Source of the DNA: Candidatus Altiarchaeales archaeon
GTDB taxonomy: Archaea > Altiarchaeota > Altiarchaeia > IMC4 > SCGC-AAA252-I15
Direction of reading: 5' to 3'
Assembly: GCA_014727915.1 (NCBI GenBank)
Contig: WJMO01000005.1
Span: forward strand, 288,001-352,000
DNA: 64,000 bases
The notes under the pieces are model-generated. The model was not told where the DNA came from. It worked only from the letters and a program-made list of their open reading frames with translations, and did not search any database. Shown here one piece after another: positions 354 through 64,000 of the stretch. Numbering within the stretch: the first letter of the stretch is position 1; each line of letters starts with the position of its first letter. Position numbers and translations under genes: made by a program.

Positions 354-426
354 GCTGGGGTGGCCAAGCCCGGTTAGGCGATCGGCTGCAGACCGATGAA
401 CGGGGGTTCGAATCCCTCCCCCAGCT
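354..426 (+). tRNA. tRNA-Cys (GCA)
   Basis: Acceptor stem GCTGGGG/CCCCAGC, anticodon arm ATCGG-CTGCAGA-CCGAT, T-loop TTCGAAT, U discriminator, no intron, CCA not encoded. Confidence 0.95.
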
Positions 427-11962: not shown

Positions 11963-12082
11963 CTTTTTAATATTAATGTGTCCTCTTATTTAACATGGCT
12001 GGACCAATTCTGGGCGTTATCGGCGGATTGGGCGTTGTTAAGGTCGCCGAGCGCGGTATGGAAGAGATCGGGAAGGGATTGG

Positions 12083-12304
12083 ATGATGAAGGGGAAGAAG
12101 ACGAAGACTGAGCCCGAAGTCATCCACTCTCCAAATTCTAAGGTCTGCGTCAGCCCCGGCTGCCCACTTTGCACCCCGTTGGGGCTTGCGCTGTTCCTCG
12201 TCGGATTCATGGTGGTGTTCTACACGGACTGGCCCTACCAGGTGTTTGGGTGGTTGACGCTAGCGTTGGCTTACCTGCAGGCGTGGGTCAAACCACGCTG
12301 GTAG
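12083..12304 (+). CDS. Small membrane protein with a Cys-rich motif
   Basis: CVSPGCPLC followed by two TM segments; start uncertain. Confidence 0.5.
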   Translation: MMKGKKTKTEPEVIHSPNSKVCVSPGCPLCTPLGLALFLVGFMVVFYTDWPYQVFGWLTLALAYLQAWVKPRW

Positions 12305-12305
12305 G

Positions 12306-12917
12306 CTATAGTCCTTCCAGCAGTCCCATGAGCTCTCCAAGAGACTCTATCCTGTGGTCTCCGTCCACTCCTATCCCAACGGTTGTGCACCCCGCAGCCC
12401 CTCCGGCTCCTATGTCTGCTTTGGTGTCACCCACCATGACGGAATCCGACTCTTTCACCCTAACAGCCTTGCAGGCGTGGTGTATCAGGTCAGGCTCCGG
12501 TTTGCCGACTGCCACGTCGTCTCCGCCGAAAACTCCGTCGAACCTCCCAGTCAGGCCTACGGTCTCGAGGGTGAGGTGCATGAGCTCGCGGGGTGTGTTG
12601 GTCACGATGACCTTGAGCTTATTCTTCCTTGATAGGTATTCCAGGACCTCGTCCGTTTCGGGGAACAATGTCACGCTACCTATGTTGTTTGGGAAGAACT
12701 CATCGTATAGTTCCACCAGCTCGCCGGGTGATAGGTTGGGGAAGAACCTACTCACATCCTCCTCCGTCGACTGTCCCAGTATGTCCTGGCAGAACGTCTC
12801 ATAGCCGACTTTGTCCCCACCCGTGTATTCTAGGACGTCGTTGAAGGTCTTATGCCATGCTGGGATGGAGTCGACGAGCGTACCGTCCATGTCGAACAGG
12901 ACTGCTTCGTAGGTCAT
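12306..12917 (-). CDS. HAD-superfamily hydrolase (phosphoglycolate phosphatase-like)
   Basis: FDMDGTLVDS, VTN, KPEP, MVGDT..D; real start is ATG 12917. Confidence 0.92.
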   Translation of the reverse strand: MTYEAVLFDMDGTLVDSIPAWHKTFNDVLEYTGGDKVGYETFCQDILGQSTEEDVSRFFPNLSPGELVELYDEFFPNNIGSVTLFPETDEVLEYLSRKNKLKVIVTNTPRELMHLTLETVGLTGRFDGVFGGDDVAVGKPEPDLIHHACKAVRVKESDSVMVGDTKADIGAGGAAGCTTVGIGVDGDHRIESLGELMGLLEGL

Positions 12918-12954: not shown

Positions 12955-14304
12955 CTAGTATCCTGCGTCGTGCTTGGCCCACCGCTCCTTCTCGGTGAGT
13001 ATCCTGCTGATCTCCTGGAATACCGGGGGTATGGGCTTCCTGCCCGACTCAACAGCGTTCCTGTTGACTGGCGCCCTCACGATGAGGGCTCCGTCCACGC
13101 CGTAGTCGTTAACTCCTATCCCCGTGGTCTTGCCCACGTTGTAGTCGTTCAACGTGTGTATGTCCGCTCTGGCAAAGCGCCCGGTCGTCAGCGCATGGTC
13201 TCCCTCCATGTCAGCGGTGAAGACTTCGAAGTCCAAATCCATCAGCGGCCGGTATGCCCTGTAGTGGTTGAAGCCTGCGACATCGTCTGTGCGGATGGTG
13301 GTCACCTCCCCTCCCCTCATGACGGTCAGGCTGGCTCCTGGTATGAGCATCCTCGTGTAGGCCATCATCCTCCCGTCGTCCGCCTGCTCGTATACGACAT
13401 CCCTACTATGGTCTATTCTGCTCCTCTTCATCCTCTGAGCCCTATCAAACTCATCCTGTGCCAACGCCGATGACTGGTGGAACAGTGCGGTCAGGCTTGT
13501 CGGCTTTGTCTCGGTTGACTCCACGTCGGGGATGTACCTCCACATTGGTATGTACACCCCTCCCGGGGTATGATTGCGTTGGATAGTCCCAGCTTCCACA
13601 TCTAGTCTGGGAAATTGTATGTCCATGACAGAGCCTCCGCTCAGTCCCCTCACCAGAAGGCGGGTCCTATCCATGTCCTCCCTTCCCCGGTCTCCTCCGA
13701 TCTTTGTTATGTCGACTTTGCCCTCCCTTCCAGCTCCCCTGCTGAACATGTCCAACAGGCTGCCTTGGAAGCCGAGGGCTTGCAGCGATGGATCGTGTCC
13801 CTCTTCGCCGTCTACCACCACCGCCATAGGCACGCCGTCGCAGTGGCAGCTTATCGCATACTCGTCTCCGCCCCCGAGGGAACATATAACAACATCGCTT
13901 TTCCCGGACCTCAGCGGGTACTGGTCTTTGGGAAGCCTTCCCGCCAGGGCGTCAAAGTACCTCCTGGCGCCTCCAACCTCCTCTAACGTGTTCAGGAAAA
14001 GCCTCATGGCAGTCGGATGCCGGTCCATGGCGTGCGCGAACCCGTCCAGTTGTAGCTCTGGCATGCTCTCAACCAAGTCTCTGAGCAAGTGGGTCCTCTC
14101 CCCCCAGACCCCCGGGTGCCCGCTCCTGGAGTCGACCAGGTCGCGGAGGCTATCGCGTGTTGCGTGGAAATGAGCGTTAGGCCTGCTGATCAGACGTGTT
14201 TTCTCGGCGGCATCCTGTCTTGCAACATCTGCTGGCACCTGGCCTTGCTCTTCCTTCCCCCCCTGGCTTTGACCACCCTTTGGTTTCTCTTCCTCTTTTG
14301 CCAT
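12955..14304 (-). CDS. Hypothetical protein with conserved-His domain and divergent C-terminal cupin-like domain (paralogue of 58417 and 59750)
   Basis: Shared motifs TPGGVYIP, HYRA..FEV, F.R.D.H...D...KTTG. Confidence 0.75.
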   Translation of the reverse strand: MAKEEEKPKGGQSQGGKEEQGQVPADVARQDAAEKTRLISRPNAHFHATRDSLRDLVDSRSGHPGVWGERTHLLRDLVESMPELQLDGFAHAMDRHPTAMRLFLNTLEEVGGARRYFDALAGRLPKDQYPLRSGKSDVVICSLGGGDEYAISCHCDGVPMAVVVDGEEGHDPSLQALGFQGSLLDMFSRGAGREGKVDITKIGGDRGREDMDRTRLLVRGLSGGSVMDIQFPRLDVEAGTIQRNHTPGGVYIPMWRYIPDVESTETKPTSLTALFHQSSALAQDEFDRAQRMKRSRIDHSRDVVYEQADDGRMMAYTRMLIPGASLTVMRGGEVTTIRTDDVAGFNHYRAYRPLMDLDFEVFTADMEGDHALTTGRFARADIHTLNDYNVGKTTGIGVNDYGVDGALIVRAPVNRNAVESGRKPIPPVFQEISRILTEKERWAKHDAGY

Positions 14305-14338: not shown

Positions 14339-17300
14339 CTAATTCGCCTGTTTGCCTTCCCGGGATTTCTCCCTCTTCTCCTCGATCCTCTGCCTCAAGT
14401 ACTCGTAGGCTTTTTTGTGGTCCCAGATGTTCTGGGGAGTCTCCTGGTTTTGGCTCTCAGAGTGCGAGATAATCTCACGCGCCCACCCCCCGCATTCTCT
14501 GCTGTCCAACAAACCCATCTCCTCTCTCCTCTGGAGCAGCCTTCGAGGCGGGAGGGATATGGTCACACTACCCCTGTCTGGGGGGACTCCGGCCTCATCG
14601 TCCAGGATCGCCTCAAGGCCTATCTGCAATGCTATCCCCTCGAACTCTTCGGAGAGCGCTCCGCAGGTGTAGTATGGCTTGTCCGCTCGCCTGCAGCTCC
14701 TCCTGCTCGATAGCAGGGCCTCCGCGAGGGTTGGCGCATACTCTGTCTTCTCCCCCGCGCTCCTGGGGGTTTCTGTGAATGACTCTCCCAGGTCGTTAGA
14801 CCCGTATGATGCTATGTCATAGTACGGGTGCAGTGATGCCATCTTACTCAATCCCATCCTGGATTCATATTGCAATATGAAGAGGACCTGCCTGTCAGGT
14901 GATTTGCCCACCTGTTCGAGCCTGCGCATGATTCTATCGAATGATTCCCTGCAGGCCTGCACGTCGCTGATGTGCTGGGCGTTTGGCAGTATGACCCCCG
15001 TCTGCTGTCGTGCGGTCGCGGCAGACCTTATTATGGCTCCCATGTTGGCGTCGAGCAGCCTGCGCCTACGAGGCTCTGCTATGAACCTAAGGCTGGTCAT
15101 ACCCCCTCTAAGCGCGTCTGGCCCGTATGCCTCCTGCAGTATCGGGAGGTATTTGTCTTCTGTGATGTCGAAGGTCCTCTTTAGGCTTGGGCATTCCCTG
15201 TATTCCGGCGGTGCGTGGTCGTAGAGGTAGTCGTCCACCCTCGAATACCTCCTCGTCAGGTACTCCTCCAGAACCCTGAACGAGTCCGGTTCAAAAACCT
15301 CTATGTGCGTGGGGTGGTCGGGGTTTGCATATGCGATGAACCTCCCTCGGATCCTGCTCTCATCATCGTCGTTGCCTGCAAAGACCAGCAGTTCGTCGCC
15401 CTGATGCCTTAGTGTCAGCTCCTCTCTCAAGTCTGTCCTGACCCTCCATCTCCTGGCTCCTCCGATCTCATCAAGCGGTTCAACCGACTCTACGTGGGAG
15501 CCGGCGTTTATCAGGTCGAACCTGTCGAAGCTGTTATTGGCCTGTTGGATGTTGGCGTAATTGTTATCTCCGAGGGTGAACGCTGGAAGTCTGCTGTTAA
15601 GCTTGACTCTGAGGGGTTGGAGGTCCGTGCTCGTGGCTATCTCGGTCCTGAATAGGTAAAGCCCCTCAGCCCCGTATCTTGTTGCGCGGGCAAGCTGGCT
15701 TTCGTTGAACCCGTTCAAAGTGGCTCCCCCAACTATCCTGAAACCGTCCGATGTGACCATGTTCCTTATCTCCCCGACTTCAGGCTCTATCGATACCTTC
15801 TGGGGTAATACGATCGCGTAACCCCTTTCCGGGCCTTGCAGTTCACAGCCGAAGAACTCACCTATCCTCCTCCCTGGACTCTCTATCATAACAGAGTTCC
15901 GGTCGTCTATGGGGTCTGCGATTAGCACGGGAGTTCCGTCCTCTATCCTATCCAGTTGTTCGGGGTCCACTCCCATGATTATGGCTTGACGCGCGGCTCC
16001 CGCGGCGATAGCTCCATGGCAGTTGCTCTTGCCATGTAATGAGCCCCAGCCTTCGAATCCCATATGCCTCAGCTCGATCACCTGGTCGGGCGTCGGGTCC
16101 CTCGGGAGGATGGCAACCCATCCCTCGTGCAGGCGTGTTAGTGTCTCCTGCGTCTGCCTTCTCATCTGGAGCAGGTCTCCGGCTCTGAGGGCGGTTTCCT
16201 TGAGGCCTCCCTCCATTATGACCTCGTTGCCGTCTATCCGTTCTCCTTCCTTGTCGGCCCAGATCACGCCCAGGAGCTCTCCTACCTTGCCTGGTTCCTC
16301 TGTTGGCGCGTGTATGGTGGCCCATGCGCAGTTTGGGTTCTCGCAGAAGCCGCCTCGCGTGTCCGGGTTGTGGAATGTGTCTTCGACTATCATTACCTCC
16401 TGCCTTCCGCTTTCCATAGCCCTTCTCGCGATGACCGCAGTGCCGTCTTCTGGCTTGTCCAATGGTATCCTAGCATCTCCCGGGACTGTTTGGAAACCTC
16501 CTTTCTTCCACTCGTACCTTGAGACCAGCTCCCTGGAACTGGGTTCCAGCAGGTATACCCCCGCCTGTCTGAAAACGGGTTCCTGGCCCTTTGGTTTGAT
16601 TGCTCTGCGGAGCACGTATGCCAGGATGTGAGTCTCTGAGAATCCGTCTCTGGTGGGCAGCAAAAGAGTCCTCATGTCAGCTTCTGCGTTGGCCCTCTGG
16701 GCGTCGTCCATCTCCTTGGGTTTTCCCTGGTCGTCCAACATGAACTGGCATCTTATGGCCAGCTCCAGGTTGGGGTGGGTTTCCTCCCCTACTGTTAGTG
16801 GCAGTCCTAGGGCGTCAACGATGCCCTGTGTTACCGGCTGGGCTAGCCTGGTGGCCAACGGCATCCTCAACTGTCCCAGGTAGTCTGCTTCACCCTTCCT
16901 CATGGCCTTGAACTCCTTTTCGTCCGTCAGTCCCAGGGCTGCAATCTCAGCGTCGGTCGCGTGCTTTCTACCGGTGGTTATGATGTCCATGAGAGCGTCC
17001 AAACGCCTTATCTGCAGCGGCACCTTGTCTTCACTCACCAGCCCATAGTCTATCACCTTCCCCCTCTCCTGTAGGGGGTCTCTCTTGACTGGCCCGTAGA
17101 CTACCATGCCCGATTCTCCTCCGCTGCCTACCAGCACGACGTTGCCCTGTTCCCTGTGCCTCCTGATCAGGCCCAGTTCGACCAGCTCCTCCGAGAAGCT
17201 GGTATCCTGGAATCTTAGCTCTCCTCCTGATTGTCCTGAAGCTTGCGCCAGCATCTTACCGTACTCTTCAGGGTTATCCTCTCTTTTTTTGATGTAGTCT

Positions 17301-17866
17301 TTCACACGCTGCTGGAAGTTGTCATGGTATGCTACGGTCAGCATGTCTGTCATCTGGCGCACGACCTGCTCGTCGGGGCCAATGGCTATCATATCTATCT
17401 GTCTCGGCTGGTTGTTGTGCGCTTCCGGGCCTTGCACTCCGAGGTCTCTCAGCTGGTCTGACCTGCACATCTCCTGCCATCCGAGGCTTCCGGGGGCGTT
17501 TCCTTCACCGTCTTTTCCCACTGGTATGAACAGCTTGCAGTCTATGTCATCCGGGTTGCCTCCTGTCTTCTTGCACCGTGGGTTATGCTCTCTGATGATC
17601 CTGAAGGTCGTGGTCGCAGGCCTGACGTGCAGCTCCTGCAGTGCCGGGAAAGTCATCTCAACCAGCGTGAGACCCTGGGTTTCAGCCCTTCTCCGTAGGT
17701 CTTCCGTGGTTATCACACCTACCGATCTTGTACTGGCGACTTCTATGGGAGTTGCGCCGGTTATCTGCGGGCCCTGCTCCTCAGGCTTCCTTGGCTGCGG
17801 GGGTTCCTGGGCCTGCGGGGGTTTCACCTCCTTTTGAGGGCCTTTCGGCTGGTCGTCAGATGGCAT
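14339..17866 (-). CDS. HPr / PTS Enzyme I-like fusion protein with inserted GAF-like domain
   Basis: LHVRPA (HPr His), SNCHGAI (EI His domain), GAEGLYLFRTE, RTFDITEDK, GSNDL, TCG (EI barrel). Confidence 0.8.
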   Translation of the reverse strand: MPSDDQPKGPQKEVKPPQAQEPPQPRKPEEQGPQITGATPIEVASTRSVGVITTEDLRRRAETQGLTLVEMTFPALQELHVRPATTTFRIIREHNPRCKKTGGNPDDIDCKLFIPVGKDGEGNAPGSLGWQEMCRSDQLRDLGVQGPEAHNNQPRQIDMIAIGPDEQVVRQMTDMLTVAYHDNFQQRVKDYIKKREDNPEEYGKMLAQASGQSGGELRFQDTSFSEELVELGLIRRHREQGNVVLVGSGGESGMVVYGPVKRDPLQERGKVIDYGLVSEDKVPLQIRRLDALMDIITTGRKHATDAEIAALGLTDEKEFKAMRKGEADYLGQLRMPLATRLAQPVTQGIVDALGLPLTVGEETHPNLELAIRCQFMLDDQGKPKEMDDAQRANAEADMRTLLLPTRDGFSETHILAYVLRRAIKPKGQEPVFRQAGVYLLEPSSRELVSRYEWKKGGFQTVPGDARIPLDKPEDGTAVIARRAMESGRQEVMIVEDTFHNPDTRGGFCENPNCAWATIHAPTEEPGKVGELLGVIWADKEGERIDGNEVIMEGGLKETALRAGDLLQMRRQTQETLTRLHEGWVAILPRDPTPDQVIELRHMGFEGWGSLHGKSNCHGAIAAGAARQAIIMGVDPEQLDRIEDGTPVLIADPIDDRNSVMIESPGRRIGEFFGCELQGPERGYAIVLPQKVSIEPEVGEIRNMVTSDGFRIVGGATLNGFNESQLARATRYGAEGLYLFRTEIATSTDLQPLRVKLNSRLPAFTLGDNNYANIQQANNSFDRFDLINAGSHVESVEPLDEIGGARRWRVRTDLREELTLRHQGDELLVFAGNDDDESRIRGRFIAYANPDHPTHIEVFEPDSFRVLEEYLTRRYSRVDDYLYDHAPPEYRECPSLKRTFDITEDKYLPILQEAYGPDALRGGMTSLRFIAEPRRRRLLDANMGAIIRSAATARQQTGVILPNAQHISDVQACRESFDRIMRRLEQVGKSPDRQVLFILQYESRMGLSKMASLHPYYDIASYGSNDLGESFTETPRSAGEKTEYAPTLAEALLSSRRSCRRADKPYYTCGALSEEFEGIALQIGLEAILDDEAGVPPDRGSVTISLPPRRLLQRREEMGLLDSRECGGWAREIISHSESQNQETPQNIWDHKKAYEYLRQRIEEKREKSREGKQAN

Positions 17867-17910
17867 GTTAAGTACTGGGAGGGACAGGCTTAAAACATTG
17901 TGTTGGCGGT

Positions 17911-57156: not shown

Positions 57157-58380
57157 ATGGACGCCGTTGTTCTGGCTGCGGGTGAGGGCACGCGTTTGAG
57201 GCCTTTGACCTCCACTAGGCCCAAGCCCATGCTGCCCGTTGCTGGCAAGCCCATCCTGGAATGGAACCTGGAGGCCCTCGACTGTGTGGGTGTGAAGAAG
57301 GCTGTCATCGTAGTCGGGTACATGCGGGAGGCCATCGAATCCTATTTCGGGAGGAAGTTCCGGAAGGTGAGGCTCGAGTACGTGGAGCAGAAGGAGCAGT
57401 TGGGCACTGCTAACGCCTTGTCGTCTGCCAGGGGCATGGTGAAGGGGGAGTTCATCGTGTTGAACGGCGACCTCTTCATAACCCGGAAGGTTCTTTCATC
57501 GCTCATCGAAGCCCATGGCAGGCACGGGGCAGAGGTGACTATGTCCCTTGTTGAGGTCAGGGAACCCCGTTCGTTCGGGATCGTCGAGGTGAGCCGTGGC
57601 AAGGTCGAGTCACTGGTCGAGAAGCCGAAGCGGCCGAAGAGCAACCTCGCGAACGCTGGCGTGTACATATTCAAAGAAGGCATATTCGAGGTCATTGAGG
57701 GGTTGAAGAAGAGCGTGCGGATGGAATACGAGCTCACAGACGCCATCGGCAGGCTGATCAAAGACGGTGTCGTCTACGGTTGCAGGAACGAGGAGGGCCA
57801 GTGGATAGACGTAGGTTTGCCCTGGAACCTTTTGGACGCGAACGAGATCGTCATGAAGAGCGTTCCGTTGAAGATGAGCAAGAAGGCGACAGTCGAAGAC
57901 TATGCTGTCCTCAAGGGCTCTGTTAACGTCGGCGACGGCACGGTCATAAGGTCGGGCTCGTACATCGAGGGTCCCGTGTACATCGGCAGGGACTGTGTGA
58001 TCGGCCCCAACTGTTACATACGCCCCCACACCGTAATAATGGACGGTTGCAAGGTGGGCAACGCCGTCGAGGTCAAGAACTCCATAATCATGCCGCGAAC
58101 ATGCGTCGGCCACCTGTCATACGTTGGGGATTCAATAATCGGGGAGGGCTGCAACTTCGGCGCGGGCACCAAGGTCGCCAACCTTCGGTTCGACGACGGG
58201 GAAGTGTCCATTGAGGTCAAGCAGAATATGGTAATGTCCGGCCGGCGGAAGTTCGGGGTCCTCATGGGCGACAACGTGAAGACGGGCATAAACGTGTCCA
58301 TAATGCCTGGCCGTTCCATCTACCCGAACGCCTACGTGGACGCCGGCAGCGTGGTGAAGAACACCATATACACGGAATAG
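57157..58380 (+). CDS. glmU: Bifunctional sugar-1-phosphate nucleotidyltransferase/acetyltransferase (archaeal GlmU)
   Basis: LAAGEGTRLRPLT..RPKPM, hexapeptide repeats, HLSYVGDS, NFGAGTKVANLRFD, GRRKFG. Confidence 0.93.
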   Translation: MDAVVLAAGEGTRLRPLTSTRPKPMLPVAGKPILEWNLEALDCVGVKKAVIVVGYMREAIESYFGRKFRKVRLEYVEQKEQLGTANALSSARGMVKGEFIVLNGDLFITRKVLSSLIEAHGRHGAEVTMSLVEVREPRSFGIVEVSRGKVESLVEKPKRPKSNLANAGVYIFKEGIFEVIEGLKKSVRMEYELTDAIGRLIKDGVVYGCRNEEGQWIDVGLPWNLLDANEIVMKSVPLKMSKKATVEDYAVLKGSVNVGDGTVIRSGSYIEGPVYIGRDCVIGPNCYIRPHTVIMDGCKVGNAVEVKNSIIMPRTCVGHLSYVGDSIIGEGCNFGAGTKVANLRFDDGEVSIEVKQNMVMSGRRKFGVLMGDNVKTGINVSIMPGRSIYPNAYVDAGSVVKNTIYTE

Positions 58381-58416: not shown

Positions 58417-59748
58417 ATGGCTAAAAAGCATGCTAATCTAAATGTAGGGGCTGGAGGCGGTGAGGAGGGCGTTCCGGTAGCGAGGCTGGAGCAGCCTGCA
58501 GGCCTCAAACTCTCCGAGGAGGATATGATGGGGCGTTATCTCATCTTTTCCGACGAGCCTCGGGAATTGGCGGCGATCGCATCGGGAGATAAGCCTAATC
58601 CCGCGGATAACATCGCGGGTTTCCTGCGTGCCGGCCAGAGGTTCGGGTTCTGTGTCTCCCCCTTCATGGGATATACGCGCGTGGAGCCGGCTTCGCATCC
58701 TGTCGTCTCATCCGCGTGCAGTATGAGGGCTACACTCCCTTCCGAGAACATTTACTCTCTCGGGTCTGTGGGGCCCGACCCCGAAGACCCTTCCAAGACC
58801 CTGGTCTACATAAGCAGGCCTGCGTGGATCCCAGAATACGGCCCTGATGTCGTGGAGGACCGTACCGTGGCCGCTCTTCACGCCTTGGGCGTAGCAAAGG
58901 ATGCTGTCGTCGACTCCCCCCGGAGGAGGATGCTTGATCTTCTGGACGAGGAGGGATGCTTCTCCTGGGTTGTCGACCATAACAATAAGCTTGCGTATGT
59001 GGCTGACATGGAGACTGGCCATCCCGAGATAGTCATGGAACACACGAAGGACGGAAAGCGTTTGGCTGACAACTTCAGGAGGCAGAGGGCGCCGATCGAG
59101 GAGAGGACGGGCAAGTATACCGAGCGGTTCAGCTGGGGTAGCGTCGAGTCCCTGGAGGACGAGGTAAGCGGCGTTGAAGTTGCTTCACTACACGTGCAGT
59201 TCCTAGGGAAGAGCACATATAGCAACCCCTATAAGAGGTGGACCGAGGTCGTGGATGTGCTAACCCGCTCTGGCATGCCTGAACAGGTCAGGCTGGTCCC
59301 TCCAGAACAGCTTAAGTCTCTGAAGGGGGTTTTACCCGGGACGGTGGAGAGGGGGAAGACCCCCAATGGCGTGGGCATCCCCTACTTTCCGCGGGCGGTC
59401 TCGGAAGAAGGCTACCGCTACAGCCAGTTTACCCTCCCGAGCGGCGAACATTATCTGAAGATAGGGGGGCCGCTTCTGCGGCATGACCGCGCGATAACCG
59501 CGATCGACCGTGCGGGAAGCTTCGAGGTCTACAACGACAGCAGCAGCCAGGAGGATGATGGTGTCAAGCGCGGTTCTTTCGTGAACGGCGACTATGACGG
59601 CATCCGTGATGGACCCTCCCATAAGACCAGCAATGGTCCCGTTGGAGGTGGGAGCATGATAGCGAGGGTGCCCGATAAGGACAACCCTGATCTGATTTTG
59701 GGTCGGATTGCCAGGGTTGTTGGCAGGGATTGGAGTAAGATGGACTGA
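58417..59748 (+). CDS. Hypothetical protein: duplicated conserved-His domain plus cupin-like C-terminus (tandem paralogue 1)
   Basis: Colinear similarity to 59750-61081; GDYDGIRDGPSHKTSN resembles cupin motif 2. Confidence 0.78.
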   Translation: MAKKHANLNVGAGGGEEGVPVARLEQPAGLKLSEEDMMGRYLIFSDEPRELAAIASGDKPNPADNIAGFLRAGQRFGFCVSPFMGYTRVEPASHPVVSSACSMRATLPSENIYSLGSVGPDPEDPSKTLVYISRPAWIPEYGPDVVEDRTVAALHALGVAKDAVVDSPRRRMLDLLDEEGCFSWVVDHNNKLAYVADMETGHPEIVMEHTKDGKRLADNFRRQRAPIEERTGKYTERFSWGSVESLEDEVSGVEVASLHVQFLGKSTYSNPYKRWTEVVDVLTRSGMPEQVRLVPPEQLKSLKGVLPGTVERGKTPNGVGIPYFPRAVSEEGYRYSQFTLPSGEHYLKIGGPLLRHDRAITAIDRAGSFEVYNDSSSQEDDGVKRGSFVNGDYDGIRDGPSHKTSNGPVGGGSMIARVPDKDNPDLILGRIARVVGRDWSKMD

Positions 59749-59749
59749 G

Positions 59750-61081
59750 ATGGGCAAGAAATCTGTTTCAAAGAGTGTGCAGGATAGTGGCGGTGGCGAT
59801 GTCCCGGTCTCGCGGTTGGAGCAGCCGTCTGGCTTGGCGGTTTCAGAGGATGGGCTCCGGATGAAGTACTGGCAGATGGAGGCTGACGAGAGGGTATTGG
59901 CTGATATCGCTTCCGGCAGGATTAACGATCCCTCTGAAGCAGTTCCCGGTCTTCTGGGTCGGGGGAGGATGATGGCGTTCAAGGTCTCTCCCCTCACGGG
60001 CCTGGCTTTGGTGGAGGAGGCGGACTTCCATGTTGTCAGCTCCAGCTTCGGCGGCTCCACCAGGCACGACGATGATAGGGTCTATTCTTTCGGTTGTGTG
60101 GTGCCGGGCGAGTCTGGCAAGCCCGTGATAGACATCTCACGCGCTGGTGTGGTTCCAGAGTATGGATGTGAGGTGTCGGAGCAGAGGACAGTGGATGCAT
60201 TGCATGCCATCGGCGTTCCAGGAGACTCTGGTGTCCGCTCTCCCAGGATTATGATGTCGAGGCTTTTCGAGGATGAGGGCGGCTTCTCCTTTGTCGTCGA
60301 CCATGATGAACGGCTTGTACTGGTTGATGACCTTGAAGCCGGCCATGCCGAGATCATAAGCGACAACGTGCGGGGCGGGGACGCGATCATCTCGGCTTTC
60401 AAGGGATTGGGCGGTGGCCCGCGTGATCGTGAATGCGAGTACACTCGGAGGTTCACCTGGGGTGTGGTCCAGCCGCTATTGGATGATGTAAGCGGCTTGA
60501 CGGTGAATGAGATGCAGTTCGAGCAGATTGCCAGTCATCCGCTGATGGACGGCCAGGCCGTGTACCTCCAGGCATGTTCCCTGCTTTCCGAGGCTGGAAT
60601 GCCTGATGCGATACGTTTGTCCTCCCCTGACAATTGCATTGTGCCCGAAGGCGTTCATGTGAGGAGCGTCCACCGCGGCAGGACACCCCAGGGGGTTGAG
60701 ATACCCTCTTGGACGGGAGTCCTTAGAGAGGGTAGCCACTGGTACACCGGGTTTCGGATACCTTCAGTCGCCGATAAGATAGGGTTGGGTCTGTTGCACC
60801 ATGCCAGGGCTGTGGAGCCCATTTCAGGCGCCGGCGAATTCGAGGTCTACAACGATGATGTGTCCGAGCCTGGCCAGCCAAAGATGGGCGGGTTTCGGAG
60901 GGGCGACTTCCATGGTGTATCGGACGGTGAGTACTGCAAGACGAGCGGGGCTTCCGACGGCGGGTTCATGTATGTGCGGGTCAGGTCAGGGGGGTCTGCT
61001 GGGGGCGTCCCGTCCGAGGTCACGCAGGTATTCAAGGCGATATCAGATGCGTTGAACAGGGATTACAGCAAAAAACCCTGA
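59750..61081 (+). CDS. Hypothetical protein: duplicated conserved-His domain plus cupin-like C-terminus (tandem paralogue 2)
   Basis: VPV.RLEQP.GL..SE, PEYG, RTV.ALHA.GV, TP.GV.IP and FEVYND shared with 58417; start ATG 59750. Confidence 0.78.
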   Translation: MGKKSVSKSVQDSGGGDVPVSRLEQPSGLAVSEDGLRMKYWQMEADERVLADIASGRINDPSEAVPGLLGRGRMMAFKVSPLTGLALVEEADFHVVSSSFGGSTRHDDDRVYSFGCVVPGESGKPVIDISRAGVVPEYGCEVSEQRTVDALHAIGVPGDSGVRSPRIMMSRLFEDEGGFSFVVDHDERLVLVDDLEAGHAEIISDNVRGGDAIISAFKGLGGGPRDRECEYTRRFTWGVVQPLLDDVSGLTVNEMQFEQIASHPLMDGQAVYLQACSLLSEAGMPDAIRLSSPDNCIVPEGVHVRSVHRGRTPQGVEIPSWTGVLREGSHWYTGFRIPSVADKIGLGLLHHARAVEPISGAGEFEVYNDDVSEPGQPKMGGFRRGDFHGVSDGEYCKTSGASDGGFMYVRVRSGGSAGGVPSEVTQVFKAISDALNRDYSKKP

Positions 61082-62621: not shown

Positions 62622-64000
62622 CTACCTTTTTCTCAACTTTGACTTCAACACGCCAGCGACTATTATCAGAGACATCAGCAGCGCCGCATACATTATTATG
62701 TCATCCTGGCTTATCTCAAGCTCCTCCTTCACGGTCGTTGTGGTGGAAGTCTGGGTGGTGGTGGTCTTGCTGGCCAGCCCCTCCCTGCTGAGTTCAATGA
62801 GGGTTTTAGCGACGTTCATCCCCGGCTCATACCCAACCCTCTCGTATTCCTCATAAGCCCTTTCCGCGTATTCCAATGACGTCTCAAAGGACCCGTTTAT
62901 GTAGTGTGATTCTGCAGTCTCATAGTATCTCTGTCCGGCTTCCCTGTTTTTTATTGTCGCGATTATCTCGGCGGCTTTCCCGGTGTTCAGCTCAGCCAGC
63001 TCCCTGGACCTGTTCAGCCCCTTCTCATAGCCTATAAGCTTGTACATCTCGATGGACTGCTGGGCCGCCTCTATGCTCGCATTGTACCTGCCCGCCTCAT
63101 AGTGTTCGATCGCCTTCCTATAGTACTGTTCCGCCTCTATTATGTTCATGGACTTTGTTGCGAGGCTTCTGGCGTCTGACTCGTTGGGGGTCAACCCGAC
63201 CTCCTTGTATATCTCGGCTGCCATGTTGGCGTGTTCGATGGTCGTCTCGAAGTCTTCCAATTCGAAGTACTTCAACGCTTCGAGGTATTGCTTGTACGCT
63301 TCCCTGGCTTTGAAGATGTCCTCGTCTATCCTATATGATATTATCCCGTCGTTGGTGCCCACGAACAGCCTGACGAAACCCTCCTCTCTGACGGGCTTTA
63401 TGGAGAGTATCTTATCTCTGACCTGGTGTTCCCAGTTCACCTCTCCCCGTGGGTTGATGAATGCGAGGGTGCTTCCCGCCCCCACTAGAAGGTAGTTCTG
63501 GCTTGACCCGTATATTCCCATGGCGCTTATGGCCTCTATGTTGGGCCTGCCGTGGCTCCAGAGCCTGTTACCCGCCGAGTCGTAGACGTGGATTATGTCC
63601 TCTGAAAGGCCGATGTATTCGGGTTTTCCGTCCCCGTCCAGGTCGTAGGCTTCTGCCATGTCATACCTGCTTTCGGCAGGCTGTTCCCACATTGTCTCCC
63701 CGTTGTCGTCTAAGAGGTATAGGCCTTTGAAGCCTGCTATGATGTATTCCATCTTCTTGTCGCCGTCCGCGTTCACGGGCTTGGCATCCCACACAGACCC
63801 GTCCATGGTCAGCTCTTTCAAGACGTTACCCTCATGGTCGTATGCGCGTATCCTGTTGTCTACGGATGATGTTATGATGTCTGTCTTACCATCTCCGTTG
63901 GCGTCGGCGAAGCTTATGCTCGTTATCAAACCCGTGTCCTTGACCATCCAAACGTACCTGTTATACAGCCTGTCCAAGCCAACCTCGGGTATCCTCTGGT
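62622..64000 (-). CDS. 3' part of a surface protein: FG-GAP/beta-propeller repeats, TPR-like helices, Thr linker and C-terminal TM anchor
   Basis: DANGDGKTDI and DLDGDGKPE repeats; helical repeats; TM followed by KSKLRKR; frame extends beyond the window. Confidence 0.8.
   Translation of the reverse strand, partial: QRIPEVGLDRLYNRYVWMVKDTGLITSISFADANGDGKTDIITSSVDNRIRAYDHEGNVLKELTMDGSVWDAKPVNADGDKKMEYIIAGFKGLYLLDDNGETMWEQPAESRYDMAEAYDLDGDGKPEYIGLSEDIIHVYDSAGNRLWSHGRPNIEAISAMGIYGSSQNYLLVGAGSTLAFINPRGEVNWEHQVRDKILSIKPVREEGFVRLFVGTNDGIISYRIDEDIFKAREAYKQYLEALKYFELEDFETTIEHANMAAEIYKEVGLTPNESDARSLATKSMNIIEAEQYYRKAIEHYEAGRYNASIEAAQQSIEMYKLIGYEKGLNRSRELAELNTGKAAEIIATIKNREAGQRYYETAESHYINGSFETSLEYAERAYEEYERVGYEPGMNVAKTLIELSREGLASKTTTTQTSTTTTVKEELEISQDDIIMYAALLMSLIIVAGVLKSKLRKR

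Follow-up and report, generated by a model that had tools for sequence, protein, structure and literature searches.

A putative PEP-dependent phosphorelay protein with HPr-like, GAF-type and Enzyme I modules, and its orphan neighbour, in an archaeon

To our knowledge, phosphorelays of the phosphotransferase system (PTS), driven by phosphoenolpyruvate (PEP), are seen as essentially bacterial, and those of archaea are mainly bacterial-like, transporter-linked and haloarchaeal. The 64,000-nucleotide (nt) stretch of archaeal DNA analysed here (the window) carries a gene at 14339–17866, minus strand, for a 1175-residue protein (P0001) that appears to join an HPr-like domain, a GAF-type module and a complete Enzyme I (EI) in one chain. 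Where would such a relay deliver its phosphoryl group in a genome in which no PTS transporter is found? The evidence points to a GAF-gated relay that would run from PEP to His617, then to His80, and finally to a 449-residue orphan protein (P0043) encoded immediately downstream, a statement that, taken whole, we hold to be only somewhat likelier true than false.

Architecture of the fusion protein

Searched against Pfam, P0001 has PEP-utilizers_C as its sole match (E=1.7e-5, 24.6 bits against a cutoff of 22.8; residues 895–1080). NCBIfam returns EI models only, far below threshold, and phmmer against the PDB finds EI C-domains at E=8e-4 (about 1e-3). A word-indexed homolog search retrieved P0001 itself and no relative, and a search of genome contigs with P0001 alone likewise gave no relative. 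In an exhaustive phmmer search of 1.84 billion representative proteins, 40 proteins were matched at E≤0.001. Eight of them, at E≤1e-10, are P0001 and seven relatives of 633–1104 residues with roughly 27–35% identity, to which a 262-residue fragment is added; the remaining matches are ordinary EI-type barrels. P0001, the relatives and the fragment make up the nine-sequence family alignment (A1). The fusion is rare, being found in 4 of 61 species-level genomes of the phylum, 49 of which form the order sample (13 of these at least 90% complete). A sub-profile survey covered 19 distinct open reading frames (ORFs) of the PEP-utilizer, kinase or HPr type and recognised the five-module layout in four of them, those of the host genome (G000) and of genomes G004, G008 and G019; the lineage's other EI-like proteins have neither HPr nor GAF modules.

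From N to C terminus, the conserved blocks of A1 are LHxRP, GP(D/N), G.G..SG.AVYG and PNAELA, then the GAF-module blocks RAG..LL, EWK..GF, IPL.K.GDGTA and LGVIWAD, and finally G...(S/C/D)H(G/S/P).I.AG, YGAEG.GL.R.E, R..D...K, IE.P, GTND and CG. Scanned singly at E≤1, the members match the Pfam families PEP-utilizers_C (8/9), PEP-utilizers (5/9), PTS-HPr (3/9; best 1.4e-4) and GAF_2 (2/9; best 0.019). The A1 profile finds Escherichia coli EI (2hwg) in the PDB at E=2.8e-46, over EI residues 153–305 and 326–572, and, more weakly, PEP synthase (6e-27), pyruvate phosphate dikinase (PPDK; 7e-13) and the HPr chain 1rzr_T (0.004; chain residues 3–78 of 88). The residues H80, H617, R740, E742, R897, D900, K905, E1001, N1024, D1025 and C1068 are each invariant in all eight members that cover the position. 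These key residues were frozen as the family drifted to about 30% identity, and the alignment therefore indicates that selection maintains the chemistry of EI and HPr in the fusion family.

An AlphaFold2 (AF2) model of P0001 made with A1 has a mean predicted local distance difference test (pLDDT) score of 70.1 and a predicted template modelling (pTM) score of 0.56. The barrel blocks lie mostly near or above a pLDDT of 90, the helical subdomain and the GAF module mostly at 67–90, and the phospho-histidine domain at about 50–78. When the model is compared with the PDB by Foldseek, full-length EI (2hwg) ranks first (E=1.1e-15; template modelling (TM) score on the target 0.64) and EI C-domains reach TM scores of 0.82–0.86, with PPDK and PEP synthase ranking lower. 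Family profiles, model and Foldseek uphold the view, put forward in an earlier note on this DNA, of a single archaeal chain that combines an HPr-like domain with EI and a GAF-type module inside it; the frame of 1175 codons is uninterrupted and lies where that note had placed it. That P0001 has this architecture in catalytic form is very probable.

The chain opens with a Pro/Gln/Lys/Glu-rich leader that is predicted to be disordered (residues 1–53, pLDDT 24–36; 17708–17866, minus strand, as for all segments of the gene). It is followed by the HPr-like domain (residues 54–185; 17312–17707), which contains His80 in the motif LHVRPA and a long insertion between strands, of about 40 residues and disordered in the AF2 model. 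Aligned by hhalign, residues 55–185 of eight family sequences match four HPr-like proteins of the lineage with a probability of 83% (E=8.8e-6) over 79 columns that include the histidine and LHxRP. These four proteins, in which the domain is stand-alone or C-terminal, themselves pass the Pfam HPr cutoff; the genome-level PF00381 scan missed the fused domains. His80, invariant in the family, is aligned with the histidine of the lineage's HPr-like proteins, and its earlier assignment holds. The predicted order of strands (67–74, 111–113 and 156–163) and helices (83–94, 137–140 and 166–181) matches HPr topology, at a pLDDT of only 43–76; the orthologous domain of G008 has a pLDDT of 75–77 in the complex predictions described below. 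The HPr fold is supported by the sequence profiles rather than by the AF2 model. A Ser46-type regulatory site, which had been proposed at the motif CRS, is rejected: the column varies in A1, and Hpr_kinase_C is unmatched in the host genome.

Two helices (residues 188–209, pLDDT 65–76) and a low-confidence flexible linker lead from the HPr-like domain to EI (residues 186–245; 17132–17311), and the segment ahead of the first strand of the EI N-terminal domain (EIN), residues 211–250, has a pLDDT of 30–35. That strand (GSGGESGMVVYGPV) and the helical subdomain, which in EI is the HPr-binding one, occupy residues 246–385 (16712–17131) and carry the conserved G.G..SG.AVYG and PNAELA blocks. PF05524 (PEP-utilisers_N), which describes the helical HPr-binding subdomain, matches none of the nine A1 members at E≤1; a helical bundle is predicted at residues 279–376, and Foldseek aligns the model as a whole with full-length EI at a TM score of 0.64. 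After the GAF-type module, EI resumes with the phospho-histidine (swivel) domain (residues 583–700; 15767–16120). PF00391 is found here in five of the nine A1 members, P0001 not among them, and the family histidine, H617 in P0001, is aligned with His189 of EI in the 2hwg alignment. The EI-type PEP-binding TIM barrel (residues 701–1135; 14462–15766) matches PF02896 and is interrupted after the RTE strand by a beta-rich insertion of about 130 residues (751–880; 15227–15616, minus strand; pLDDT mostly 46–73), which is common only to P0001 and one relative (P0004); two others (P0006 and P0008) have short extra segments there.

The active-site residues of the barrel can be matched to EI one by one. 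In the 2hwg alignment the arginine of RTE corresponds to R296, R..D...K to R332, D335 and K340, IE.P to E431, ND to N454 and D455, and CG to C502, with R740 (and E742), R897/D900/K905, E1001, N1024/D1025 and C1068 as the counterparts in P0001. In the motifs on which the earlier note had relied, the phospho-histidine motif NCHGAI and the barrel motifs LFRTE, RTFDITEDK, YES, GSNDL and TCG, the named residues are invariant. The motifs suggest that P0001 is a catalytically competent, very divergent EI of the PEP:phosphotransferase type, as part of a whole reading to which we lean slightly.

The GAF-type sensor module (residues 386–582; 16121–16711) bears the blocks RAG..LL, EWK, IPL.K.GDGTA and LGVIWAD. 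It follows the helical bundle (residues 279–376) and stands right before the segment aligned to EI residue 153 onward, so that it lies inside EI, as the earlier note had it, and not at the N terminus as in PtsP. In EI, two connections link the HPr-binding subdomain to the phospho-histidine subdomain, and we take the insertion site to be one of them. A dedicated six-sequence alignment of the module (A6) gives a profile that finds the GAF-bearing PDB entries 4mcw (E=0.0064) and 4g3k (E=0.0084), and Pfam GAF is matched by two of six module relatives (best 2e-6), the piece from P0001 itself having no match. The nearest clusters in a protein atlas are all GAF (score 0.91), which is treated as a lead only, and fragments in the cluster of one relative carry the JGI name 'signal transduction protein with GAF and PtsI domain'. 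By blastp, the closest sequences belong to histidine kinases of sister genomes, in which they form the N-terminal domains (E=4e-11 and 3e-9, 27–31% identity); these are proteins of 598 residues in G011 (L115 5341–7134, minus strand) and 780 residues in the same-genus genome G001 (L114 4749–7088, minus strand). Both have HATPase_c, one also has HisKA, and one matches GAF_2 at 6.2e-5, below the cutoff. Because the sensor domains of sister-genome kinases are its closest relatives, the sequences suggest that the GAF domain was shuffled within the lineage.

The orphan neighbour and the possible destination of the phosphoryl group

The gene for the orphan partner P0043 (449 residues; 12955–14304, minus strand) starts 35 nt past the stop codon of the fusion. 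A homolog lies immediately downstream of the fusion and in the same direction in all four fusion genomes (the host, G004, G008 and G019), with blastp E values between loci of 4e-7 to 7e-25, and this adjacency has been kept despite about 30% identity among the fusions. A profile scan finds the partner family in 8 of the 49 genomes of the order, and in all eight one copy shares a contig with an EI-like gene. Its members have 324–499 residues and a consensus motif RG.TP.GV.IP with a near-invariant P.G. Gly169 and His170 are the sole invariant residues, in 10 of 10 sequences, and P130, G190, P247 and G249 are nearly so. Profile searches detect no relative of the family in Pfam, NCBIfam or the PDB. 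The protein atlas gives scores of 0.88 or less, with a poor model and no credible match, and a word-indexed search with P0043 returns only P0043 itself; with the partner alignment it returns one more protein, identical to an ORF of the same-family genome G015.

A possible contact between the two proteins was modelled with the pair from G008, using residues 1–125 with the HPr-like domain and the 324-residue partner, each with its alignment. The complex scored 0.64 (0.70, 0.57 and 0.64 in the three runs) against 0.01 for the best control, and so passes a mark attained by 58 of 80 solved complexes and by 2 of 110 mismatched pairs, a calibration that holds only roughly here, as the pair consists of G008 orthologs with their own shallow alignments. 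At least 74% of the contacts are common to the runs, in which the pLDDT of the partner is at least 83. On the HPr side the predicted interface includes residues 29–31 and 33–35 among others, His29 being the HPr histidine; on the partner side it includes residues 106–110 among others, and Gly109-His110 is the invariant pair. In the model the partner thus docks at the active site of HPr, with its Gly-His pair against the HPr histidine, which lends support to binding. The relay had earlier been called self-contained. This no longer fits: since a conserved partner adjoins the fusion in 4/4 fusion genomes and is predicted to dock on HPr, the relay is probably not self-contained. Moreover, the genome encodes one more EI-like protein and an HPr-like protein that stands alone.

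From these observations we infer the phosphotransfer steps, the GAF gating, the acceptor role of the partner and what the relay does in the cell, as follows. PEP bound in the C-terminal barrel would phosphorylate His617, and from there the phosphoryl group would move, either in cis or inside a dimer, to His80 in the tethered HPr-like domain. The GAF module would sit as an insert in the hinge that separates the helical, HPr-binding subdomain from the phospho-histidine one, and a small ligand bound to it may set the rate of the phosphorylation steps, by analogy with glutamine on the GAF domain of bacterial EI-Ntr. Phospho-His80 would then be delivered to the downstream-encoded partner, probably to its invariant His170. 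That the partner is the phospho-acceptor of the fusion is a close call, which we would put a little short of even.

Other destinations were sought among the known outputs of the PTS. No match to PTS_EIIA_2, EIIA-man, Dak1, Hpr_kinase_C, PTS_EIIA_1 or PTS_IIB is present in the host genome, an assembly of 1.81 Mb in 13 contigs that is 90.6% complete. Domain searches were run beside 14 control genomes, four of them archaeal, and each of the EII, dihydroxyacetone (Dha) kinase and HPr kinase (HprK) searches matched the expected controls, Haloferax included where appropriate. A candidate EIIC was rejected, the sole PTS_EIIC match in the host genome being one of 16 bits inside a DUF2330 protein. PTS_EIIA_2 is found in none of the 49 genomes of the order, Pfam detects no EIIA family in P0001 or the A1 members, and in none of the four loci examined does a membrane-protein gene accompany the fusion as a linked gene. 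The earlier remark that no EII transporter is visible in the window can thus be widened to the whole of the 90.6%-complete genome, where searches for EII, Dha kinase and HprK families gave no hit above threshold. Since none was found, the relay most likely controls or drives the activity of the partner and does not import sugar, and the fusion likely serves signalling rather than uptake.

Several points count against this reading, beside the rough calibration of the complex score. Every result is computational. In Pfam, P0001 has no HPr, GAF, mobile-domain or PEP-utilisers_N match; its HPr, GAF and mobile-domain assignments rest on the nine-sequence family profile and transitive homology, and the AF2 model of the HPr region has low confidence (pLDDT 43–76). 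The AF2 model of the partner, made from a four-sequence alignment, is poor (pLDDT 42). HPr:EIIA complexes are present in the PDB, and the pass of the predicted complex may partly reflect memory of HPr interfaces. In four further genomes, where the matches to the partner are weaker, the partner gene is convergent or divergent to the EI-like gene, not operonic, at distances of about 0.5–0.6 kb (G020 and G003), about 2 kb (G015) and 2.6–3 kb (G002), and the host genome encodes three more partner paralogs, none beside an EI-like gene. Because 9.4% of the genome is missing, EII parts may have been missed, and such parts may also be equally divergent. Cross-talk is possible as well, because the fusion shares its genome with another EI-like protein and with an HPr-like protein that stands alone.

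The second EI-like protein, P0002 (754 residues; L004 1339–3600 = G000 contig C12 at about 140 kb, minus strand), matches PF02896 at about 1e-34, with weak N-terminal and mobile domains and neither HPr nor GAF. Its Pro/Gln/Lys-rich N-terminal leader is like that of P0001 (44% identity over 32 residues). The stand-alone HPr-like protein, P0003 (158 residues; L001 1336–1809 = G000 contig C12 at about 15 kb, minus strand), has the motif GLHIRPAS and matches PF00381 at the cutoff; its gene lies between ORFs of 431 and 342 residues, which we take to resemble an RtcB-type ligase and an archaeal-type dehydroquinate synthase. Such a protein is encoded in three of the four fusion genomes (G000, G008 and G019; 132 residues in the latter two), and a Pfam-level HPr in 4 of the 49 genomes of the order, three of which also bear the fusion. 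The host genome also has a PPDK-like gene (916 residues) and a PEP-synthase-like gene (808 residues). An unusual HPr fusion from the same archaeal family was noted in G011 (contig C10, L131 1143–3671, plus strand): an 843-residue protein with a C-terminal HPr domain (PF00381, E=8.8e-8), of which about 720 N-terminal residues have no Pfam match.

P0003 and the partner paralogs bear on an explanation that retains a ligand-gated EI–HPr signalling relay and denies the orphan neighbour the role of phospho-acceptor, linking it to the fusion only by shared physiology. The output would then come from the phospho- or dephospho-form of the HPr-like domain binding other targets, or from cross-talk with P0003. 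Bacterial regulatory PTS branches, as described in the available excerpts of two studies, work through contacts of the phosphocarrier protein (PMC4848567; PMC2937029), which is in keeping with this explanation, as are the stand-alone HPr-like protein in three of four fusion genomes, the partner paralogs away from EI-like genes, and a partner fold that is unrecognised by AF2 (pLDDT 42), Pfam, NCBIfam or the PDB. It leaves unaccounted for, however, an adjacency kept in 4/4 genomes despite about 30% identity among the fusions, a predicted docking that centres on two invariant histidines, and the gain or loss of the pair together relative to G001. We regard this explanation as a whole as rather unlikely.

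Alternatively, P0001 may be an ordinary multiphosphoryl transfer protein (MTP) that feeds an EII transporter or Dha kinase encoded in the unassembled part of the genome (about 9%) or too divergent for Pfam. Bacteria are well known to have fusions of HPr and EI that work for transporters (PMC2405797, in the excerpt available), the genome is only 90.6% complete, and the PTS parts of this lineage are barely visible to Pfam, so that EII parts may be missed too. Yet none of seven EII, Dha and HprK families gave anything above threshold in the host genome, PTS_EIIA_2 is missing from all 49 order genomes, 13 of them at least 90% complete, and the four fusion loci examined contain no linked membrane-protein gene. 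We consider an ordinary MTP improbable.

Quite improbable, too, is a metabolic PEP-utilizing enzyme that interconverts PEP and pyruvate or phosphorylates a small molecule, with an HPr-like domain that is vestigial or purely structural. The barrel does resemble PEP synthase and PPDK (E=6e-27 and 7e-13, and by Foldseek), and EI of E. coli is able to run in reverse (PMC5290146, from the excerpt available), but the match to EI beats that to PEP synthase by about 20 orders of magnitude, Pfam detects no ATP-grasp nucleotide domain in P0001 or the A1 members, and PPDK-like and PEP-synthase-like genes are already present in the genome. The invariance of His80 and LHxRP in a family of about 30% identity argues for an active site in use. 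The idea that a bacterial PTS gene was acquired horizontally and survives as a decaying or non-functional relic, suggested by the patchy occurrence (4/61 phylum genomes, and missing from G001) and the extreme divergence of the sequence, is very improbable given an intact 1175-codon frame, catalytic positions that are all invariant (8/8) and a partner linkage that has been kept.

Comparison with known phosphotransferase systems

HPr–EI fusions, GAF–EI proteins and transporter-less PTS are each already known in bacteria, according to the excerpts available of three papers (PMC2405797; PMC4848567; PMC2937029). A close functional likeness to the GAF-gated relay proposed here is EI-Ntr (PtsP), in which EI is likewise coupled to a GAF sensor and operates with no sugar transporter (PMC4848567; PMC2405797), and in which glutamine on the GAF domain inhibits PEP-dependent autophosphorylation (PMC4848567). 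The GAF domain of PtsP is N-terminal (PMC2405797), whereas that of the fusion lies inside EIN, just before the residues aligned to EI 153 onward. PtsP has no fused HPr and passes its phosphate to NPr and then EIIA-Ntr; in contrast, the HPr-like domain is fused here and PTS_EIIA_2 is found in 0/49 genomes. The GAF module of the fusion is also closest, unlike that of PtsP, to those of archaeal histidine kinases in its own lineage. These GAF–HisKA–HATPase_c kinases share the sensor module with the fusion (27–31% identity), but their autophosphorylation is ATP-dependent, whereas that of the fusion would be PEP-dependent.

In bacterial MTPs, as in the fusion, HPr and EI form one chain, and the HPr(N)-EI(C) protein of Mesorhizobium loti likewise has HPr at the N terminus (PMC2405797, in the excerpt available). 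According to the same excerpt, MTPs usually have an EIIA domain and are encoded in operons with EII transporters or Dha kinases (PMC2405797). The fusion differs from them in having no EIIA domain, no transporter found, an added internal GAF and an archaeal host. The PTS of Brucella resembles the fusion as a PEP relay that has no permease and is proposed to be purely regulatory, but it consists of separate EI-Ntr, NPr and two EIIA proteins (PMC2937029, in the portion available), unlike a single chain with an orphan partner of no known family.

Among archaea, EI and HPr homologs are also present in the haloarchaeal PTS (the fructose-class systems of Haloarcula and Haloferax, and DhaKLM). There, EI and HPr are separate and bacterial-like, EIIA, B and C lie in one cluster, and branches are short; a 2008 survey of 19 archaeal genomes reported a PTS in Haloarcula only (PMC2405797, from the excerpt available for both statements). 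The Haloferax control matches HPr, EIIA_2, EIIC, EIIA-man, Dak1 and PTS_IIB, in contrast to only HPr and the barrel in the host genome. A literature search found no EI with an internal GAF and no such combination in one chain, the architecture table of PMC2405797 lying outside its coverage, and it found no PTS-like relay in Altiarchaeota and no account of the orphan partner family.

What sets the fusion apart is its deep divergence, the rarity of the family, the joining of EI and HPr in one chain and a sensor placed at the hinge between the EI subdomains. Of all the elements, it is the partner that could turn out to be categorically new, as a possible new kind of phospho-acceptor. If the proposed relay is real, PEP-driven histidine relays would have been independently rewired for regulation in uncultured archaea, the pair would be a compact system of two proteins in which to study the gating of EI domain motions by a ligand, and the orphan family would gain a first functional handle.

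The locus and its neighbouring genes

The fusion and its partner belong to a co-directional run made up of gcvPA, gcvPB, lipA, P0001, the 449-residue ORF and a gene for a HAD-family hydrolase. The last, the third gene of the block (12306–12917, minus strand), matches HAD_2 at E=1.1e-31 and has its likely start methionine at MTYEAVLFDMDGT; the longest ORF extends to 13052. It is unlinked to the fusion–partner pair in G004, G008 and G019. In the window, P0001, the partner and the HAD gene stand between lipA and a small membrane-protein ORF at 11978–12304, in a block of about 5.6 kb with spacers of 35–37 nt. The genome of the same genus (G001, 92% complete) has no fusion, and its gcvT-H-PA-PB-lipA region is colinear with the window, with a homolog of the 11978–12304 ORF about 40 nt beyond lipA. 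Because all three genes are missing together from this otherwise colinear locus, fusion, partner and HAD gene are gained or lost as a unit. The gap that replaces the block in G001 contains a 76-residue ORF (L134 9471–9701, plus strand), which we presume resembles a HicA-type toxin. A functional link to the upstream lipA and gcvP genes is rejected: this context is absent in G004, G008 and G019, and the block is an indel in the otherwise conserved lipA–gcvP neighbourhood.

Upstream of the fusion, the sequence TTTTAAG (17889–17895, minus strand), centred 26 nt before the ATG, is a possible archaeal TATA box for a leaderless transcript, read as such from the general features of archaeal promoters. 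No sequencing runs are listed as containing the fusion–partner pair, and thus no RNA among them.

The partner paralogs and neighbours bear on what the relay may control. Two of the paralogs are encoded in tandem in the window (443 and 457 residues; 58417–59748 and 59708–61081, plus strand), co-directional with and directly downstream of a GlmU-like gene (NTP_transferase and hexapeptide; 57157–58380, plus strand). The 'F.F.V.P ... GH' region apparently occurs twice in each, pointing to an internal duplication. Behind the fusion–partner pair, G008 has genes for a sugar-1-phosphate nucleotidyltransferase and for three epimerase/dehydratases (by Pfam), and G019 has the same gene order, as judged from near-identical N-termini only. 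These neighbours, the GlmU-like gene before the tandem paralogs and the HAD gene in the block together give a weak hint of sugar-phosphate or nucleotide-sugar metabolism. Extended along these lines, the partner family would be a new class of terminal phospho-acceptor, a functional analogue of EIIA or DhaM without detectable sequence kinship, through which PEP supply and the GAF ligand would control or directly energise a sugar-phosphate or nucleotide-sugar (cell-envelope) step. We consider this extension doubtful.

As to the host, the earlier view that it is an archaeon is borne out by Ribosomal_S6e, found on the same contig as P0001 (E=2.8e-35) and, among the 14 controls, only in the four archaea. 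The lineage is named Altiarchaeota on submitter labels only: NCBI labels as 'Candidatus Altiarchaeota archaeon' both one relative of P0001 and the protein identical to the G015 ORF. The GC content of the P0001 region (0.564–0.568) is similar to that of its surroundings.

Elsewhere in the window, the sole Rfam match at the gathering threshold is a tRNA at 354–426 (plus strand, 59.1 bits). Near the opposite end, a 451-residue protein (62622–63977, minus strand) has repeats rich in D-x-D-G-D-G motifs at its N terminus and a hydrophobic anchor at its C terminus, and also contains helical TPR-like repeats and a Thr-rich linker.

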